A stretch of DNA of 64,000 nt from Escherichia phage vB_VIPECOOM01, in sequence record OQ721909; one strand, given 5' to 3'. Every line of letters starts with the position of its first letter. Positions within the stretch are counted from its first letter, which is position 1. The position numbers and the translations under genes were made by a program. The notes under the pieces are model-generated. The model did not search any database, was not told where the DNA came from, and worked only from the letters and a program-made list of their open reading frames with translations. Shown piece after piece: positions 8,286 through 41,985 of this stretch.

Positions 8286-10099
8286 TGGTGTTTAACCCTA
8301 TGCATGATTTCTTTATTTTTGCCGAGATTAAATCCGCGTTCATTCGGATTTCCCAAATAACCACAAGTTCTTCTTATTGTGTTCATCTTTTTAGGATCAG
8401 TTTCTCCACAAATAGAACAAACAAATCCGTTTTCAGTAGGAGTCATTTCATGGGTACTTCCACATGTAAAACATTTATCTACTGGCATGTTAACGCCAAA
8501 ATAATCTAAATGTTGTGCAGCATAATCCCATACAGCCTCAAGACCTTTTAGGTTATTTTTCATATCAGGAAGTTCAACATAAGAAATGTGACCACCTGTC
8601 GCAATGAAATGATACGGGGCTTCGCGAGAAATCTTTTCAAACGGAGTGATATTTTCTTCTACTGAAACGTGGAAACTGTTAGTGTACCAGCCTTTATCAG
8701 TAACGTCTTTTACACTTCCATATTTTTCGGTATCAAGTTTGCAGAAGCGATAGCACAGGTTTTCAGCAGGAGTAGAATACAAGCTAAAAGCAAAACCGGT
8801 TCTTTCAGTCCACTGCTTAAGACGAGCATTCATTTTAGTTAAAATTTCTTGCCCAATATCACGACCGACAAGGATATTCAATTCGTGAATACCAATGTAT
8901 CCTAAAGACACTGAACTTCTACCGTTTTTAAATAACTCAATTATATCATCATCAGGTTTAAGACGAACCCCGAATGCACCTTCTTGGTAAAGAATAGGAG
9001 CAACAGTCGCTTTAACTCCTTTTAAGGAACTAATTCTACACATCAAAGCTTCAAAACACAAATCCATTCGTTCATTGAACAATTCGGCAAATTTCTGTTC
9101 ATTGAACTGTGTTCCAATATAAGAATCTAACGCAATACGAGGAAGATTCAGTGTTACAACGCCAAGATTATTACGTCCATCAAGAATTTCATTACCAGTC
9201 GAATCTTTCCATACACTTAAGAAACTGCGGCAACCCATTGGAGAAACAGGAATAGATGAACCGGTGATGGCTTTATTGTTCTTAGCCGAAATGATGTCAG
9301 GATACATTCTTTTGCTTGCACACTCTAGAGCAAGCTGCTTAATATCATAGTTCGGATCGTCTTTATAAAGATTAACACCTTCTTCAACGAACATAACAAG
9401 TTTAGGGAAAATAGGAGTTATCCCGTCACGACCAAGACCTTTAATACGATTTTTCAGAATTGCTTTCTGAATCATTCGTTCAGTCCAGTCAGTTCCCGTG
9501 CCAAATGTAATTGTTACAAAAGGCGTTTGTCCATTTGAACTAAAGAGAGTATTTACTTCATATTCATAAGCTTGGAACGCATCATATACGTCTTTTTCTG
9601 TTTTAGACTGGGCGTAATTCAACGCATCAGCGATTTGCCATTTTTCTGCATCCTCAATATGTTTTGCATAGGTGCGTTTAACATAAGGAGAAAGTACTTT
9701 GTCTACATTCGCAAAAGTCGTTCCGCCGTATTGATGGGAAGCAACCTGTGCAGTAATTTGTGCCATAATTGCAGTAGCAACGCCGATTGATTTAGGAGTT
9801 TCAATCTGTGCATTACCGAGCTTAAATCCGTTCTCAAGCATTCCTTTTAAATCTACTAAACAGCAATTAGTAAATGGAAGAGCAGGAGAATAATCAATAT
9901 CATGGAAATGAATAATTCCGCTTTCATGCGCTTTCATAATAAAAGACGGGACCATATTTTTGGCAATGTGTTTAGACACAATACCAGCCATAAGGTCCCG
10001 TTGAGTTGGAAAAACACGAGAATCTTTATTAGCATTCTCGTTTAAAAGGTCTTTATTAGTTTTATGAATCAATCCTTCAATTTCTTTTTCAATTGTCAT
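8282..10099 (-). CDS. nrdD: Anaerobic ribonucleoside-triphosphate reductase (class III, glycyl radical)
   Basis: 605 aa uninterrupted ORF; C-terminal Zn-ribbon cysteines and glycyl-radical region; no intron. Confidence 0.95.
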   Translation of the reverse strand: MTIEKEIEGLIHKTNKDLLNENANKDSRVFPTQRDLMAGIVSKHIAKNMVPSFIMKAHESGIIHFHDIDYSPALPFTNCCLVDLKGMLENGFKLGNAQIETPKSIGVATAIMAQITAQVASHQYGGTTFANVDKVLSPYVKRTYAKHIEDAEKWQIADALNYAQSKTEKDVYDAFQAYEYEVNTLFSSNGQTPFVTITFGTGTDWTERMIQKAILKNRIKGLGRDGITPIFPKLVMFVEEGVNLYKDDPNYDIKQLALECASKRMYPDIISAKNNKAITGSSIPVSPMGCRSFLSVWKDSTGNEILDGRNNLGVVTLNLPRIALDSYIGTQFNEQKFAELFNERMDLCFEALMCRISSLKGVKATVAPILYQEGAFGVRLKPDDDIIELFKNGRSSVSLGYIGIHELNILVGRDIGQEILTKMNARLKQWTERTGFAFSLYSTPAENLCYRFCKLDTEKYGSVKDVTDKGWYTNSFHVSVEENITPFEKISREAPYHFIATGGHISYVELPDMKNNLKGLEAVWDYAAQHLDYFGVNMPVDKCFTCGSTHEMTPTENGFVCSICGETDPKKMNTIRRTCGYLGNPNERGFNLGKNKEIMHRVKHQ

Positions 10100-10569
10100 T
10101 TTAAACTCTTTCTAAGCTGCTTCTTAAATGAAGCTATTAATTGTGTTTTGGTGTCAGATTCATTATATTCAAATCCTCTTTGAAGCATCTCAGCCATCAT
10201 TTCCTCTTTTCCTAAACGAGAAAATTCCTTTGATTTATCTCCAACAAAGTTAGGGTGAATATTATTTTGGGTGTAATCGGATTTTAAATAAGTAAGTAAA
10301 TTTTCTAACCATTCAAGATAATCAACACCTTGTCCCTTTAAGCCAGAACGATTAAATTTATGCTTCATTTGACCTTCTGCAGCATTACAGAGATTACATA
10401 GCAACCCACGTACCTTTCCTGCTTTTGGTCCATTTAATTCATGGTCATGGTCAAGGTGATTAGCTTGAACATCAGGATTTAGTTCTCGTTGGCAAATTAA
10501 GCATTTACCGTTTTGTGCATCATAAAATTTCTGTTTTTCTTCTTTATATAATTTGCCAGTCAATAACAT
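10096..10569 (-). CDS. 49: Recombination endonuclease VII (Holliday junction resolvase)
   Basis: 157 aa; N-terminal sequence and Cys/His zinc site match recalled T4 endo VII. Confidence 0.93.
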   Translation of the reverse strand: MLLTGKLYKEEKQKFYDAQNGKCLICQRELNPDVQANHLDHDHELNGPKAGKVRGLLCNLCNAAEGQMKHKFNRSGLKGQGVDYLEWLENLLTYLKSDYTQNNIHPNFVGDKSKEFSRLGKEEMMAEMLQRGFEYNESDTKTQLIASFKKQLRKSLK

Positions 10570-10571
10570 AA

Positions 10572-10605
10572 TAAAACCCTTACCTTAAATAGATAAGGGT
10601 ATTTA
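10572..10605 (-). terminator. hairpin terminator-like element
   Basis: CCCTTATC ... GATAAGGG inverted repeat followed by T-run on minus strand. Confidence 0.45.
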
Positions 10606-36478: not shown

Positions 36479-37042
36479 TTATTTATCTAGTTTAGTTATT
36501 ATAGCTTCTGCGGCAGCTTTTAGCTTAGATGCGGTGTTAATACGATTTTTAATTTCAGTATACGCATCGCCAAGAACATCAAGGCTATCAGAATAAACAC
36601 TTACACTATTGCGTTCGCTATTTGAAATAGAACCTTTAGTTTTACGATCAAAATCGGTGTACACGTCTTGAAGATCACGGGCTGCCTTCTTTGCATCATC
36701 CAATGCGTCAAGAGCTTTATTCAAAGCATTAACGTATTTTTTAGTGTCGAACATATTCTTAGAAATTTTAACAGGTGCGCGTTCAGGAGTAGCTAATGCA
36801 GATTTAGGAACCTGAGCGCCAGATGCCAATTTCTTAGAAATTTTGAAAAACGCTTTATTGAATTTATTTTCTTGACTCATCGTAAAAGAACTATTATCGA
36901 TGTTGTACATTTCAATAGCTTTAGCTTTCCACTTAAGAAAATCGCCGCGGTCTTTTGGGTCCAAGTGGAAGAATACTTTAGTAAGATCTGCTTCAGATGG
37001 TAATTTTGCTGCTTCGGTTAAAAATTCGGCATAGGTTTTCAT
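36479..37042 (-). CDS. putative capsid-targeted internal protein (CTS leader, 187 aa)
   Basis: N-terminal MKTYAEFLTEA matches internal-protein leader with L-x-E cleavage site; flanked by terminator hairpins. Confidence 0.6.
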   Translation of the reverse strand: MKTYAEFLTEAAKLPSEADLTKVFFHLDPKDRGDFLKWKAKAIEMYNIDNSSFTMSQENKFNKAFFKISKKLASGAQVPKSALATPERAPVKISKNMFDTKKYVNALNKALDALDDAKKAARDLQDVYTDFDRKTKGSISNSERNSVSVYSDSLDVLGDAYTEIKNRINTASKLKAAAEAIITKLDK

Positions 37043-37167: not shown

Positions 37168-37641
37168 TTATTTGATTTGTTTAGCAGACCAAATGCGGTC
37201 TTTAATAATTTTTTGGATGTCTTCAACATACTCTAGGTCATGAGCATGTGGGTTATCTTTGAAACTATAAGCACGAGCTAGTTTTTGGCCTTCAGTTTTG
37301 ATTACTAAAAGCTCTTTAAGGATAGCTTCATATTTAGCGATAATTCCTTTAACAATATTTTTTTCTTGTGCAACTTTAGGATCTGCTTTAGGAGCAGGTT
37401 TACCCGAAGCCTTTGCAAAAGCAGCGCCAGTAGCAACTAAACTTTTCCAGGCCATACTAACTGCATTTCCTGTAAATCCTTCTGCTTTCATGTCGCGGGC
37501 AAATTGGAATCGTGATTCGTCAGAAGCATCTTTATAGGAATATTTACCCGCTGCAATGGCTGCTTTTGCGACAGCTTGAATTTCGGTGCTAGATGCTTCA
37601 TTTAACACCGCTTCATTTAAAAATTGAGCATATGATTTCAT
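37168..37641 (-). CDS. putative capsid-targeted internal protein (CTS leader, 157 aa)
   Basis: N-terminal MKSYAQFLNEA; TATAAATA late promoter upstream and terminator downstream. Confidence 0.6.
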   Translation of the reverse strand: MKSYAQFLNEAVLNEASSTEIQAVAKAAIAAGKYSYKDASDESRFQFARDMKAEGFTGNAVSMAWKSLVATGAAFAKASGKPAPKADPKVAQEKNIVKGIIAKYEAILKELLVIKTEGQKLARAYSFKDNPHAHDLEYVEDIQKIIKDRIWSAKQIK

Positions 37642-37689: not shown

Positions 37690-37718
37690 TAAAAAGCCCC
37701 AACCTTTCGGTCGGGGCT
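37690..37718 (-). terminator. rho-independent terminator ending the tRNA / small-RNA transcript
   Basis: Near-duplicate of the 37132-37160 hairpin followed by TTTTT on minus strand. Confidence 0.7.
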
Positions 37719-37719
37719 A

Positions 37720-38029
37720 AGCCTTGCGGCAACCTTGTCGGGGTTCCACCTGCTAAGGCAAGTGTTTGTACGAAACGCCGGGATTCGAACCCGGTTATTA
37801 AGCAGTTGACGCTACTCAATATTTTTAAAAGGCCATATCTCGACCATATCCGAACGTTCCGTCAAAAACGCTACTCGGCTTACGGCAAAGATATTTCCTC
37901 GAATCGATAATTCGGTGCGCCGTTTCTGCTGTGATGTAAGGGGATATTAACAAATCGTAAAGATTTATTAAGACCAGTCCTTACGCAGGGAACATCAGTC
38001 CGACGACTTACCGGTAGCGACCCGGTTTC
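37720..38029 (-). ncRNA. candidate small stable RNA(s) downstream of tRNA cluster (T4 RNA C/D equivalent)
   Basis: ~310 nt non-coding stretch between 116-aa ORF and terminator; contains tRNA-like T-arm ACCGGGTTCGAATCCCGG. Confidence 0.3.
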
Positions 38030-38380
38030 TTAATATTCTTTTAAAGCATCAATTTGTTCACGGCGTTTACGCCATAAATCAATTGCTTCATACGCAGATT
38101 CAGCATTTCGAATTGGACGGCATTTATATAAAGACTTATGATTTTGATATTGTGTAGATAACGGAATTTTATCTAAAAGGTCTTTACGTTCAAAATATTC
38201 GTAACCATCTAAACCAAATGAACGATTTTTGAGAAATTGCCAATGACCGTATTCGTTTTCGACATAAACATAATCCGCGTGTTGATAAAGCAAATTAATT
38301 ACACGTTCAGAAATAACAGTGTCATTGTGATTAAAATAAAATGTTAAATCATGAACTACTAAATAAACATTACCTTTCAT
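38030..38380 (-). CDS. hypothetical protein
   Basis: 116 aa ORF with GAGGAA RBS immediately downstream of tRNA-Arg. Confidence 0.5.
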   Translation of the reverse strand: MKGNVYLVVHDLTFYFNHNDTVISERVINLLYQHADYVYVENEYGHWQFLKNRSFGLDGYEYFERKDLLDKIPLSTQYQNHKSLYKCRPIRNAESAYEAIDLWRKRREQIDALKEY

Positions 38381-38396
38381 ATTTTCCTCACTTAAT

Positions 38397-38472
38397 TGGT
38401 CGAGGCAGTAGGGATCGAACCTACGACCTAGGACTTAGAAGGTCCTTGCTCTTCCTTCTGAGCTATGCCCCG
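38397..38472 (-). tRNA. tRNA-Arg (anticodon TCT)
   Basis: Cloverleaf read by hand: anticodon loop CTTCTAA, T-arm GGTTCGATCC, CCA encoded. Confidence 0.85.
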
Positions 38473-38476
38473 TAAT

Positions 38477-38552
38477 TGGGGTGACCGATGGGAGTCGAAC
38501 CCATGACTACGAGAATCACAATCTCGAGTTCTACCAACTGAACTACGGCCAC
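38477..38552 (-). tRNA. tRNA-His (anticodon GTG), no encoded G-1
   Basis: Anticodon loop TTGTGAT; discriminator C then CCA; closely resembles E. coli tRNA-His body. Confidence 0.75.
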
Positions 38553-38636
38553 ATTAATACCTACTCCAACAATCAAGATGTCTTCACACGAAATTAAGAG
38601 AAGAGTGATCAGTTCAACCCCGATAATCGCGTCAAG

Positions 38637-38652
38637 TAGATATTAATGTGAC
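38637..38652. repeat. perfect 16-bp palindrome TGTGACAATTGTCACA in tRNA spacer
   Basis: Self-complementary; matches CRP-type TGTGA-N6-TCACA half-site arrangement. Confidence 0.5.
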
Positions 38653-38656
38653 AATT

Positions 38657-38731
38657 GTCACAAATTTGGCGGACGTGATAGGATTCGAACCTATAACCAA
38701 TCGCTTAACAGGCGATCGCTCTGCCATTGAG
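38657..38731 (-). tRNA. tRNA-Asn (anticodon GTT)
   Basis: Anticodon loop CTGTTAA; T-arm GGTTCGAATCC; CCA encoded. Confidence 0.8.
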
Positions 38732-38735
38732 CTAC

Positions 38736-38822
38736 ACATCCAAATTGGTGGGGAGTGATGGAGTCGAACCACCCGAGTCGCAATGACAATGGATTTACAG
38801 TCCACACCGCTACCTCTACGGG
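38736..38822 (-). tRNA. tRNA-Tyr (anticodon GTA), long variable arm
   Basis: 87 nt; anticodon loop CTGTAAA; perfect 7-bp acceptor stem; CCA encoded. Confidence 0.8.
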
Positions 38823-38835
38823 ATAACTCCCCTTA

Positions 38836-38910
38836 ATTCTTAATTTGGTGGCCCTGGGTGGAATTGAACCACCATCTGGCGATTATGAGTCGCTTGCTTG
38901 AACCTTCCAG
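38836..38910 (-). tRNA. tRNA-Ile2 or Met (anticodon CAT)
   Basis: Anticodon arm GCGACTCATAATCGC as in E. coli tRNA-Ile2; CCA encoded. Confidence 0.75.
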
Positions 38911-38929
38911 CTACAGGGCCAAATTTTTC

Positions 38930-39412
38930 TTATTTTATGTAATATTTATTTAAAAACTTTCTAGCTTGAGTATGGCTAACATTTATAGCGTTTGCATAAT
39001 TTTTAATAAAACCTCGTTCATCCATATTAAAATTTTCTAATATTTTTAATCGTCTAATTATCTCATCTTGGCTTAAGGTACTTGCATTATTTTTAGAAAT
39101 TTTTTCTAAAGACTGCACTGAGTGTTTTCGACCATTAAAATTAAAATTTTTAGGTTTTGGAGGAAATCTATCATTTAGTCTCGCATCTTTTGTATTTTGA
39201 TTATTAGTTGCGCAATATATGTTATTTAATGAGTATGGTCCTTTATCACCAAAACGACACATACAGTATTCATGACCCTTTCTTCCACGCTTATCATAAT
39301 TTCCCGTTGATTTCCACCAATTCAACCACTCATCAAAAGTTAAATTCCATTCAATGTTTCTACGTATAGCAGAATTCCGCTGAGAAATATATTTTGCATA
39401 ATCTTCTTTCAT
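38930..39412 (-). CDS. putative HNH-like (His-Me finger) endonuclease inserted between tRNA subclusters
   Basis: 160 aa basic protein; HEYCMC ... NNIYCATNNQN spacing suggestive of HNH; position equivalent to T4 segB. Confidence 0.4.
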   Translation of the reverse strand: MKEDYAKYISQRNSAIRRNIEWNLTFDEWLNWWKSTGNYDKRGRKGHEYCMCRFGDKGPYSLNNIYCATNNQNTKDARLNDRFPPKPKNFNFNGRKHSVQSLEKISKNNASTLSQDEIIRRLKILENFNMDERGFIKNYANAINVSHTQARKFLNKYYIK

Positions 39413-39459
39413 CGCAAATTTCTCTACTTATTGCATACACTAAGCTAAATCAGCAAAAC

Positions 39460-39549
39460 TGGCGGAGGCGATAGGATTTGAACCTATGAGTCGCCGGAGC
39501 GACTGCCGGTTTTCAAGACCGGTGCATTAAACCACTCTGCCACGCCTCC
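39460..39549 (-). tRNA. tRNA-Ser (anticodon TGA), long variable arm
   Basis: 90 nt; anticodon loop CTTGAAA; CCA encoded. Confidence 0.85.
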
Positions 39550-39551
39550 AG

Positions 39552-39625
39552 TCTCCGCGGCAGGATTTGAACCTGCGACATTCTGCTCCCAAAGCAGACG
39601 CTCTACCAAACTGAGCTACACGGAG
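39552..39625 (-). tRNA. tRNA-Pro (anticodon TGG), CCA not encoded
   Basis: Anticodon loop TTTGGGA; 3' end abuts tRNA-Ser (dimeric precursor arrangement). Confidence 0.8.
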
Positions 39626-39635
39626 TAAATTAAAT

Positions 39636-39709
<74 letters not shown>

Positions 39710-39714
39710 AAATT

Positions 39715-39801
39715 TGGTGCGAGAAGTGGGACTCGAACCCACAAGGAAATCATTCCGCAGCATTTTAAGTGCTGTGCCTTTACCAATTTGACCATTCTCG
39801 C
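39715..39801 (-). tRNA. tRNA-Leu (anticodon TAA), long variable arm
   Basis: 87 nt; anticodon loop CTTAAAA; CCA encoded. Confidence 0.85.
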
Positions 39802-39802
39802 G

Positions 39803-39875
39803 CTGGGAATAAAGGACTCGAACCTTTGCATCTAGCAGTCAAAGTGCTATGCCTTACCAACTTGGCTAATTCCCA
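39803..39875 (-). tRNA. tRNA-Gln (anticodon TTG), CCA not encoded
   Basis: Anticodon loop CTTTGAC; 3' end one nt from tRNA-Leu 5' end (dimeric precursor). Confidence 0.85.
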
Positions 39876-39961
39876 ATTATTAACAAAGGCTCTTAAGCAA
39901 GAACCCTTGATGATAGAGGGTATTAATCAGTGCGATATGAGTTAATAATAACAAATAATTC

Positions 39962-40486
39962 TTAAAGCAAATTAAACATTTTAACGGTCGGCAAAACAAT
40001 TTCTTCTTCTATATAAGAGTATTTAACACTCTCAACTACACGCAAAAAATCATAATCATAATACTCAGAAGCATTACCTAAAATATTAATAAGTCCTTCA
40101 AGCACTTTATTACCATTCACAAAAAATAAGTCAAATACACGTTCTTCATCTTCTTCAGATTTATTACCAAGATCAACTTCTATGCGAAAGACCTTTTTAA
40201 TGAATTCTGGATAAAGCTGGTCTGAGAACAGTCCTTCAACCAAGTATTCATAAATAAAAAGAGATTGCTCGCTGAACAAACCATTACCGCAATAGCGCTC
40301 AATTTTAGTACTAGAATATCTGCTTTTAAATTTCTTTAAAAGATACTGAAATTGTAAGATTTCATGCTCTTCTACGCCAAACAGTGTTTTAGTTTTATAG
40401 TTGTCACCATCATTTTCCCAGGTAGTGACATCAATTACGTAACCCTGCGGAATTGTAGTACCCAAACAAATATTCATTTTCACCAC
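39962..40486 (-). CDS. hypothetical protein
   Basis: 174 aa ORF. Confidence 0.55.
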   Translation of the reverse strand: MVKMNICLGTTIPQGYVIDVTTWENDGDNYKTKTLFGVEEHEILQFQYLLKKFKSRYSSTKIERYCGNGLFSEQSLFIYEYLVEGLFSDQLYPEFIKKVFRIEVDLGNKSEEDEERVFDLFFVNGNKVLEGLINILGNASEYYDYDFLRVVESVKYSYIEEEIVLPTVKMFNLL

Positions 40487-41414: not shown

Positions 41415-41648
41415 TTATTTTTTACGAAAAATTGATTTATTTTCTGCTGCCCATTTTTCAATAACTGCAGCAGGACCAGTAACAACAATTTTATCACCGT
41501 AATCTTCTGCGGCGAGTTGACCGAAATTATCTAATGCATCACGAAGAACTCCATGAGGCATTTCACCCATTTTATCTTTCTTGCCGGTGTAAATAAACTC
41601 AACTTTTACATCAGAAGATTCAGCGATAAACTCTTTGAAAGTTTTCAT
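41415..41648 (-). CDS. ipI: Internal protein I-like capsid-targeted protein
   Basis: 77 aa from MKTFKEFIAES leader; early promoter upstream; position matches T4 ipI. Confidence 0.6.
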   Translation of the reverse strand: MKTFKEFIAESSDVKVEFIYTGKKDKMGEMPHGVLRDALDNFGQLAAEDYGDKIVVTGPAAVIEKWAAENKSIFRKK

Positions 41649-41680
41649 TTTAGTTTCCATTCGATTGTTTTGTTTTGATA

Positions 41681-41735
41681 GGGTAATAATATCACAACTA
41701 AAACCCTATGTAAACAACTTTGTGAAATTATTTTA
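41681..41735 (-). promoter_or_regulatory. early promoter upstream of ipI-like gene
   Basis: UP element, GTTTAC -35, TGTGATATTATTACC -10. Confidence 0.6.
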
Positions 41736-41985
41736 AATCTTCTAATCGTTTCTTCATCTTAGAACCATTTTTAGCAATTTCTCCTGCATCGGAGCATAAT
41801 GCTAAAAGTGCTTTAACTTTCGTTTGGTCTCCTTTAAAAGATGAAGGATCTACTGCAGCAGCAAGTTCTTTAATACGAGAGAAAAGACGCTCAGCTTCAG
41901 CTAAAGCCATTCCAAGCTTTACTTCCATACCGTGGGAAGATTCAGTGATAGTAGTTTTTGTAGCAAACTCTTTGAAAGTTTTCAT
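41728..41985 (-). CDS. hypothetical protein with partial CTS-like leader
   Basis: 85 aa; N-terminal MKTFKEFATKTTITESS; own early promoter. Confidence 0.5.
   Translation of the reverse strand: MKTFKEFATKTTITESSHGMEVKLGMALAEAERLFSRIKELAAAVDPSSFKGDQTKVKALLALCSDAGEIAKNGSKMKKRLEDLK

Follow-up and report, generated by a model that had tools for sequence, protein, structure and literature searches.

What kind of protein is encoded in the middle of the tRNA operon of Escherichia phage vB_VIPECOOM01, and how did its gene come to lie there? The 64,000-nucleotide (nt) stretch of sequence record OQ721909 that we analyzed, hereafter the window, contains an open reading frame (ORF) of 160 amino acids (aa) that is flanked on both sides by tRNA genes. 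In a sequence-only reading of the window, it had been proposed that this ORF has HNH-like spacing, lies exactly where phage T4 carries the homing endonuclease gene segB, and may be a free-standing homing endonuclease gene. From sequence comparison and structure prediction, we consider it fairly probable that the ORF encodes a free-standing homing endonuclease, which combines an N-terminal domain of the PacI-type His-Me finger with a C-terminal tail of the SegB type.

The ORF is complete, extending from an ATG start to a TAA stop (38930..39412) on the minus strand, as do its leader, its junctions, the flanking tRNA genes and the parts of its product mapped below. The window is a Tequatrovirus segment, and Escherichia phage vB_VIPECOOM03 shares positions 38300-40000 with it at 100% identity. 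We regard the ORF as a real gene because 20 mononucleotide shuffles of the window contained no ORFs of ≥160 aa and because the protein is conserved: it is a member of PHROG 16521 (‘unknown function’; expectation value (E) 2.4e-54), and homologues over its full length occur in many T4-like phages. As had been described earlier, the product is basic (isoelectric point 9.82; 30 Lys and Arg residues versus 16 Asp and Glu residues), lies between tRNA genes and is rich in Asn (13.8%) and Lys (10.6%), with the motifs HEYCMC at aa 47-52 and NNIYCATNNQN at aa 63-73. The G+C content of the ORF is 28.6%, compared with 35.1% for the window. It is an intact homologue of trna.1 of phage T2L (AJ880101), which Brok-Volchanskaya et al. 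described in 2008 as an ORF of unknown function (PMC2330249). A Pfam scan of the product returned one sub-threshold match, to DotZ, and nothing relevant, and an NCBIfam scan returned no matches. A phmmer search against the PDB gave chance matches to eL37 only.

The affinities of the product differ between its two parts. Its C-terminal part comprises a stretch (39083..39166) made up of a linker predicted with low confidence and the NUMOD3-like motif GRKHSVQSLEKIS (aa 94-106), a motif that aligns with the NUMOD3 stretch of RB18 SegB, followed by a helical helix-turn-helix DNA-binding module (aa 111-160; 38933..39082). Residues 83-160 matched the C-termini of SegB-like proteins from phage RB18 (32% identity, E 1e-14), Klebsiella phage Mineola (40% identity, E 1e-14) and Shigella phage vB_SdyM_006 (52% identity, E 4e-22), all of which have an N-terminal GIY-YIG domain plus NUMOD3 and are encoded in tRNA clusters. 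The likeness was limited to the tail: a profile scan found no GIY-YIG domain in the ORF product, whereas these three proteins matched in a like search. The same helix-turn-helix tail was found in a canonical HNH endonuclease, the gene of which takes the place of tRNA-Gln in phages OE5505 and Lutter (hhalign, 82% probability, E 1e-5); BLASTP gave no match between the ORF product and the OE5505 HNH protein. Within the family defined by the N-terminal domain, 11 of the 39 members examined matched Pfam NUMOD3 directly, and the domain was joined to varied NUMOD3 and helix-turn-helix tails. Judged by sequence, N-terminal domains of three kinds thus precede one and the same DNA-binding tail in the tRNA clusters of phages, and, because that tail is common to GIY-YIG and HNH enzymes, the N-terminal domain of the ORF fills the slot of known nuclease domains.

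We propose that the domain in this slot (aa 1-82; 39167..39412) is a PacI-like beta-beta-alpha-metal nuclease without zinc sites. AlphaFold modelled the whole product with a mean predicted local distance difference test score (pLDDT) of 90.9, and the N-terminal domain alone with a pLDDT of 93.5 and a predicted template modelling score of 0.82. According to the AlphaFold2 model and DSSP, the domain consists of helices at residues 2-17 and 26-36, strands at 49-53 and 65-69, and a helix at 70-79; in other words, it is predicted at a pLDDT of >90 to be a beta-beta-alpha unit that follows two helices. A core motif, R53-x2-D56-x-G58-x-Y60-x3-N64-x8-N73 (39194..39256), was present in all 182 family proteins that we fetched, and residues W29, W33, R42, G43, M51, R53, D56, G58, Y60, N64 and N73 were invariant in alignments of 9, 39 and 108 homologues.

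These conservation patterns support the earlier proposal of HNH-like spacing and a His-Me finger in part. Within the N63-N73 stretch, N64, which precedes strand 2, and N73, which lies in the helix, were invariant (182/182), and from their positions they would correspond to the conserved Asn and the helix metal ligand, respectively. By contrast, H47 of HEYCMC is not conserved, homologues having N, D, Q, P or C there, and the position of the canonical catalytic His, at the end of strand 1, is occupied by the invariant Arg R53. The predicted fold and its PacI-type register agree with a His-Me finger, while the canonical His is absent. The family is very large and uncurated: an exhaustive profile search recovered 7,771 representatives of 50%-identity clusters at E ≤ 1e-3 and 5,412 at E ≤ 1e-10. 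Four metagenomic relatives (P0039, P0040, P0042 and P0050) contain two complete tandem copies of the N-domain motif; with two active sites per chain, double-strand cleavage could be possible for such proteins.

PacI is the classic example of an HNH enzyme that does without the histidine. In R.PacI (PDB 3LDY/3M7K), which Jablonska et al. 2017 placed in group 20 of the His-Me fingers, a tyrosine of the loop joining the two strands stands in for His, and a single Asp together with a single Asn binds the metal (PMC5714182, PMC4081073, PMC3384342). Two free-standing lactococcal phage genes were classed as ‘PacI-like’ by HHpred in a 2025 survey (PMC12724721). Gene 03 of Lactococcus phage phi93 matched PacI with an E of 1.7e-4, and this alignment yielded the PacI motif D92-R93-x-D95-x4-Y100-x3-N104-x8-N113. 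R53, Y60, N64 and N73 of the ORF and R93, Y100, N104 and N113 of PacI have equal offsets from the Arg (+7, +11 and +20). Furthermore, PHROG profiles 3118, 1035, 3322 and 4592 were matched in the same regions by phi93 gene 03 and by relatives of the ORF; phrog_3118 was matched by 26 of 39 family members (best E 8.5e-7), and PHROGs annotated as HNH or endonuclease VII were the only nuclease profiles matched by these relatives. Local hhalign of 187 N-terminal domains against 101 PacI-like domains gave a probability of 80.8% (E 1.3e-5), and an extended alignment placed R53, Y60 and N64 opposite the PacI-type R, Y and N. Significance was obtained with the 101-sequence profile alone; hhalign against phi93 gene 03, by itself or with the PacI fragment added, was not significant. 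The HNH link is drawn solely from the predicted structure (PacI), the PHROG cross-matches and this profile-profile comparison.

How the gene arrived can be read from its surroundings. Ten tRNA genes lie around the ORF, all on the minus strand and in the order Gln, Leu, Gly, Pro, Ser, ORF, a tRNA with a CAU anticodon, Tyr, Asn, His and Arg. The upstream neighbour, in the same transcription unit, is tRNA-Ser(UGA) (39460..39549), and the downstream neighbour is the CAU-anticodon tRNA (38846..38920), which is Met according to ARAGORN and tRNA-Ile in T4 nomenclature. T4 segB is located between tRNA-Ile and tRNA-Arg (PMC2988022, Table 1). The ORF thus does not occupy the segB site, as had been supposed; it lies across tRNA-Ile from it, in the place of tRNA-Thr, which is found between tRNA-Ser and the CAU tRNA in the ORF-less Tequatroviruses ph0021 and RB18. 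Homology between the window and these ORF-less phages ends after nt 16 of tRNA-Thr and restarts at the 5΄ end of the CAU tRNA (38920), and the flanks of the two alleles are 97-99% identical. The insert comprises 518 nt (38921-39438) in place of 61 nt, and includes a 26-nt leader that arrived with it (39413..39438), in which only a weak Shine-Dalgarno-like GAGA was found, and a 9-nt spacer from the stop codon to the 5΄ end of the CAU tRNA (38921..38929), which forms the downstream junction. The sole remnant of the gene present in ORF-less relatives is a 16-nt tRNA-Thr stub from the 5΄ acceptor strand to the D loop (GCTGATTTAGCTTAGT; 39439..39454). Phages that carry the ORF have lost tRNA-Thr(UGU) altogether, and the allele comparison indicates that arrival of the ORF destroyed the phage's tRNA-Thr gene. 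Because the insert junctions are identical in the window, OE5505, Lutter and T2L, the comparison points to a single insertion event that has spread since.

With respect to expression, we found no promoter of the ORF's own, promoter-like sites were no commoner than in shuffled sequences, and the leader showed no significant RNA structure (z -0.59). A terminator-like hairpin is present 3΄ of the tRNA cluster (37695-37718). These results are consistent with co-transcription of the ORF and the tRNAs, as described for segB.

Other insertions were observed in the Tequatrovirus tRNA operon. The RB18-type segB (RB18 locus 1210-1860) occupies the usual place of tRNA-Pro, and a gene for a 202-aa canonical HNH protein (phrog_14736; OE5505 locus 1807-2415, Lutter locus 1611-2219) occupies that of tRNA-Gln. 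One tRNA seems to have been lost per insertion in this operon.

The distribution of the gene is patchy. Among 967 phage records with this tRNA region, 24 (2.5%) carried the ORF, which was intact in 15 and frameshifted in nine, the latter being T2 strains and SV76. Alignment of the T2 copy revealed two 2-bp deletions in the 5΄ third, within the N-terminal domain, and we therefore interpret it as a pseudogene, the copy in the window being intact. The SV76 copy has two 2-bp deletions as well. In T4 x T2L crosses, trna.1 was kept by only 0.4% of the progeny, the region being converted by T4 SegB (PMC2330249). Homologues were found in six T4-like genera including Tequatrovirus, always within a tRNA cluster and with different flanking tRNAs: Leu and Thr in CkP1 (Karamvirus; per the record annotation, with Tyr for Thr according to ARAGORN), Asp and Lys in EcS1 (Kagamiyamavirus), Asn and Tyr in Aeromonas phage 31 (Biquartavirus), Gln and Arg in S16 (Gelderlandvirus), and Asn and Ile in phiAS5 (Chrysonvirus). 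Within Biquartavirus, the gene is present in phage 31, the site is empty in L9-6, and a T5orf172-type gene lies one tRNA further on in 44RR2.8t. Relatives beyond the T4-like phages adjoin a terminase gene or lie in early regions, not near tRNA genes, and Aeromonas phage MQM1 has a fragmented copy next to its DNA polymerase gene, in which putative introns are inserted. Patchy presence and different tRNA sites across genera fit mobility, and, as far as sequence comparison can tell, distribution, site-hopping, low G+C content and decayed copies together fit the behavior of a selfish mobile gene.

Several further observations concern these records. The T5orf172-type gene of 44RR2.8t, ORF121c (locus 579-1133), lies between tRNA-Tyr and tRNA-Lys and has no counterpart in phages 31 and L9-6. 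It was considered as a family member and rejected on account of its T5orf172/MUG113 domain, and it represents a third class of putative homing endonucleases among the tRNA clusters of T4-like phages. Klebsiella phages KP182 (OM337876) and vB_KpnM_SmallBear_ER8 (PP738792) each have two separate places that match the ORF, which indicates at the sequence level that some Klebsiella T4-like phages have two copies of the family. Megablast of the tRNA region also matched 18 Campylobacter phage records and Pseudomonas phage PsgM02F (98.6% identical), a Pseudomonas record that looks like a Tequatrovirus.

The location of the gene could also suggest that its product acts on RNA, in tRNA processing, repair or cleavage. 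In all T4-like phages examined, the gene is located inside a tRNA cluster, and homologous ORFs often overlap the following tRNA gene at its 5΄ end. We nevertheless consider this explanation very improbable: NUMOD3 and the helix-turn-helix are binders of double-stranded DNA common to proven DNA endonucleases (PMC2330249), relatives beyond the T4-like phages are not near tRNA genes, and the nearest structural relative, PacI, cuts DNA. As for the overlaps themselves, several homologous ORFs, as well as SegB-like genes, end 10-23 nt into the next tRNA gene, the D-arm of which gives the stop codon, so that RNase P would cut the message at or before the stop, as proposed for T4 segB. The ORF in the window has a 9-nt gap to the next tRNA and no overlap.

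A number of results weigh against the assignment of the ORF to PacI-type homing endonucleases. No HNH, GIY-YIG or AP2 profile of Pfam or NCBIfam, the families named in the sequence-only reading, matched the ORF product, and 39 relatives gave no match to HNH-type profiles (Pfam PF01844, PF13392, PF02945 and others) or to AP2 in Pfam. Searches of PDB sequences with the family profiles gave no PacI or HNH match, and Foldseek against the PDB gave nothing significant (best E 0.29; PacI at E 1.1, probability 0.63). The significant part of the hhalign match to PacI-like domains consists of the two N-terminal helices, and the catalytic hairpin, while in register, is not significant alone (E 0.05). PacI has Asp92 before its Arg; the family has A (108), C (46), S (19) or G (11) there, so that a candidate metal ligand may be missing, and its own invariant D56 stands three residues after the Arg. 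The two Cys4 zinc sites of PacI are not conserved in the family either, in which C50, C52 and C67 are variable and no CxxC pairs occur. By hhalign, the family showed no similarity to the endonuclease VII (gp49) of the window, and in the OE5505 HNH protein only the C-terminal helix-turn-helix aligned, the N-terminal domain being unlike. No co-conversion tract is visible in the flanks of the insert, because the ORF-plus and ORF-minus flanks are almost identical. Finally, we found no family member that had been tested biochemically or genetically, and the one PacI-like gene of lactococcal phages that was assayed for marker exclusion did not belong to the pair of genes that lowered plaque counts (PMC12724721). 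The endonuclease VII used as the negative comparison is the gene 49 homologue at 10099-10584 (minus strand), which has the canonical CxxC...DHDH...CxxCN motif.

Because the product lacks the His, the Asp before the Arg and the zinc sites, and its activity is deduced indirectly, we retained, as an unlikely alternative, the possibility that it is a catalytically dead nuclease fold that only binds DNA, like SMAD MH1. Such a binder could regulate the tRNA operon, or could shield sites in tRNA genes from co-infecting SegB-type endonucleases, for which it could compete with a tail the same as theirs. Non-catalytic DNA-binding His-Me fingers are known (PMC5714182, PMC3384342), no curated nuclease profile is matched, and T2 tolerates loss of the gene. 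However, R, D, G, Y, N and N are invariant at the active-site positions in a family of ~7,800 clusters, which is unexpected for a dead fold, and a Tyr-for-His arrangement is active in PacI (PMC5714182, PMC4081073). The constancy of the N-terminal domain across many tails, together with its tandem copies, is the pattern of a catalytic module, and a patchy, site-hopping gene with decayed copies resembles a selfish gene and not a regulator that benefits its host. We regard catalytic competence of the ORF product as likely.

An active nuclease might alternatively have been domesticated, serving not homing but the degradation or exclusion of competitor or host DNA, or the amplification of tRNA genes against tRNA-targeting defences. 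For SegB, with its shared tail, segmental amplification of tRNA-Tyr and of further anti-defence loci has recently been shown (PMC13096335), and members of the family lie beside terminase genes and in early regions on contigs of unrelated phages, where HNH roles in packaging are known (PMC10055350). This explanation overlaps with homing and does not exclude it, given that SegB does both; the rarity of the gene among related records (2.5%) and its inactivation in T2 argue against an important conserved function in Tequatrovirus, and we rank domestication slightly below the dead binder, as rather unlikely. The original suggestion of a free-standing homing endonuclease, now or recently, with a catalytic domain of the His-Me finger (HNH, beta-beta-alpha-metal) superfamily and a tie to variation of the tRNA cluster, remains very probable, although H47 as the catalytic His is not supported and the position is not that of segB.

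The reality of the gene, the architecture of its product, the tail homology, the predicted fold and motif register, the junctions, the patchy distribution and the decayed T2 copy are shown here directly; that the product is catalytically active, what each residue does, where the enzyme cuts and that the gene homes is what we infer from them. The N-terminal ~80 residues would form a PacI-type beta-beta-alpha-metal nuclease domain with Arg53 in place of the general-base His. Tyr60, the equivalent of PacI Tyr100 in the loop between the strands, would activate or act as the nucleophile or base; Asn73 and probably also Asp56 would hold a divalent metal, and Asn64 would brace the hairpin. The conserved tryptophans W29 and W33 appear to stand in for the Cys4 zinc sites of PacI. 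A flexible linker with the NUMOD3-like motif would connect this domain to the C-terminal helix-turn-helix module, and the tail would dock on tRNA-gene DNA, the recognition of which is expected because the tail is homologous to those of SegB-like enzymes of tRNA clusters. Transcribed within the tRNA operon precursor, the ORF would act in mixed infections, in which its N-terminal domain would nick or cut the tRNA region of an ORF-less relative, most plausibly in or near an intact tRNA-Thr gene, which the ORF's own allele has lost. Recombinational repair would then copy the ORF into the relative with the neighboring tRNA genes.

Such an enzyme would share features with several known systems. PacI is a bacterial restriction enzyme that reads 8 bp unaided as a homodimer, whereas the ORF is a mobile phage gene whose product has a separate NUMOD3 and helix-turn-helix tail, and direct sequence searches do not join the two. 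The PacI-like phage endonucleases of the phi93 gene 03 type resemble the ORF more closely in that both are free-standing, sporadic phage genes with common N-terminal ‘RGIxFxLTxEE’ helices, the R, Y, N, N motif and PHROG cross-matches; unlike the ORF product, phi93 gene 03 has a CxxC...CxxC zinc site, the D-R-x-D form of the motif and no SegB-type tail, and its activity is predicted only. SegB and SegB-like GIY-YIG genes (PMC2330249, PMC13096335) are likewise free-standing in the tRNA operon, have the homologous NUMOD3/helix-turn-helix tail, replace or displace tRNA genes and are transcribed with the tRNA precursor. However, they have a GIY-YIG catalytic domain, unrelated to the beta-beta-alpha domain of the ORF product, their insertion sites differ from that of the ORF, and cleavage and homing by SegB have been shown by experiment, while those of the ORF product are predicted. 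Canonical HNH homing endonucleases such as I-HmuI and T4 Mob (Pfam HNH, HNH_3) are also free-standing phage genes with an N-terminal beta-beta-alpha unit followed by NUMOD and helix-turn-helix, but they have a D-H general-base pair and Pfam matches, both of which the ORF product lacks. The T2L trna.1 is the same gene with the same junctions (~96% identical), frameshifted by its two 2-bp deletions and annotated as a shorter ORF of 133 aa.

On sequence and model together, the ORF probably encodes a free-standing homing endonuclease from a clade of PacI-like HNH proteins (~7,800 clusters) that lack both zinc and the histidine and are described by no curated database. This result provides a probable function for T2 trna.1 and PHROG 16521, ‘unknown’ since 2008, and for thousands of metagenomic clusters missed by Pfam and NCBIfam. 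The swapping of GIY-YIG, canonical HNH and histidine-less HNH domains on one tail would amount to a natural experiment on the retargeting of homing enzymes. The insertion cost the phage its tRNA-Thr, which is relevant because tRNA content and SegB-driven amplification decide the outcome of tRNA-targeting defence (PMC13096335). More tentatively, and with some doubt, we propose that the whole clade is a large class of phage nucleases with an HNH fold that uses a loop Tyr and dispenses with His and zinc, and that in T4-like phages its domain, swapped onto the SegB tail, forms a second, mechanistically distinct tRNA-gene endonuclease that reshuffles, deletes or amplifies tRNA cassettes. Such an endonuclease could thereby affect escape from host defences that cleave tRNA. 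Should the tyrosine mechanism be confirmed, what is now an oddity of a single restriction enzyme would apply to a major class of phage nucleases.

Further features were noted in and near the tRNA cluster of the window. A 114-nt spacer between tRNA-Asn and tRNA-His (38553-38666) holds the palindrome GTGACAATTGTCAC; Lutter and T2L have neither this spacer nor tRNA-His. The stretch 37695-38030 (minus strand) follows the trna.2 homologue (38030-38380), and from the T2L arrangement it is expected to encode rnaD and rnaC, two stable RNAs; it matched no Rfam family, and the short ORFs in it are probably spurious. Four small minus-strand ORFs at 36479-37042, 37168-37641, 41415-41660 and 41728-41985 have near-identical N-termini (MKTYAEFLTEA, MKSYAQFLNEA, MKTFKEFIAES and MKTFKEFATKT, respectively), and phrog_2280 matched the first two. 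We take these N-termini to resemble the capsid-targeting sequence of T4 internal proteins.

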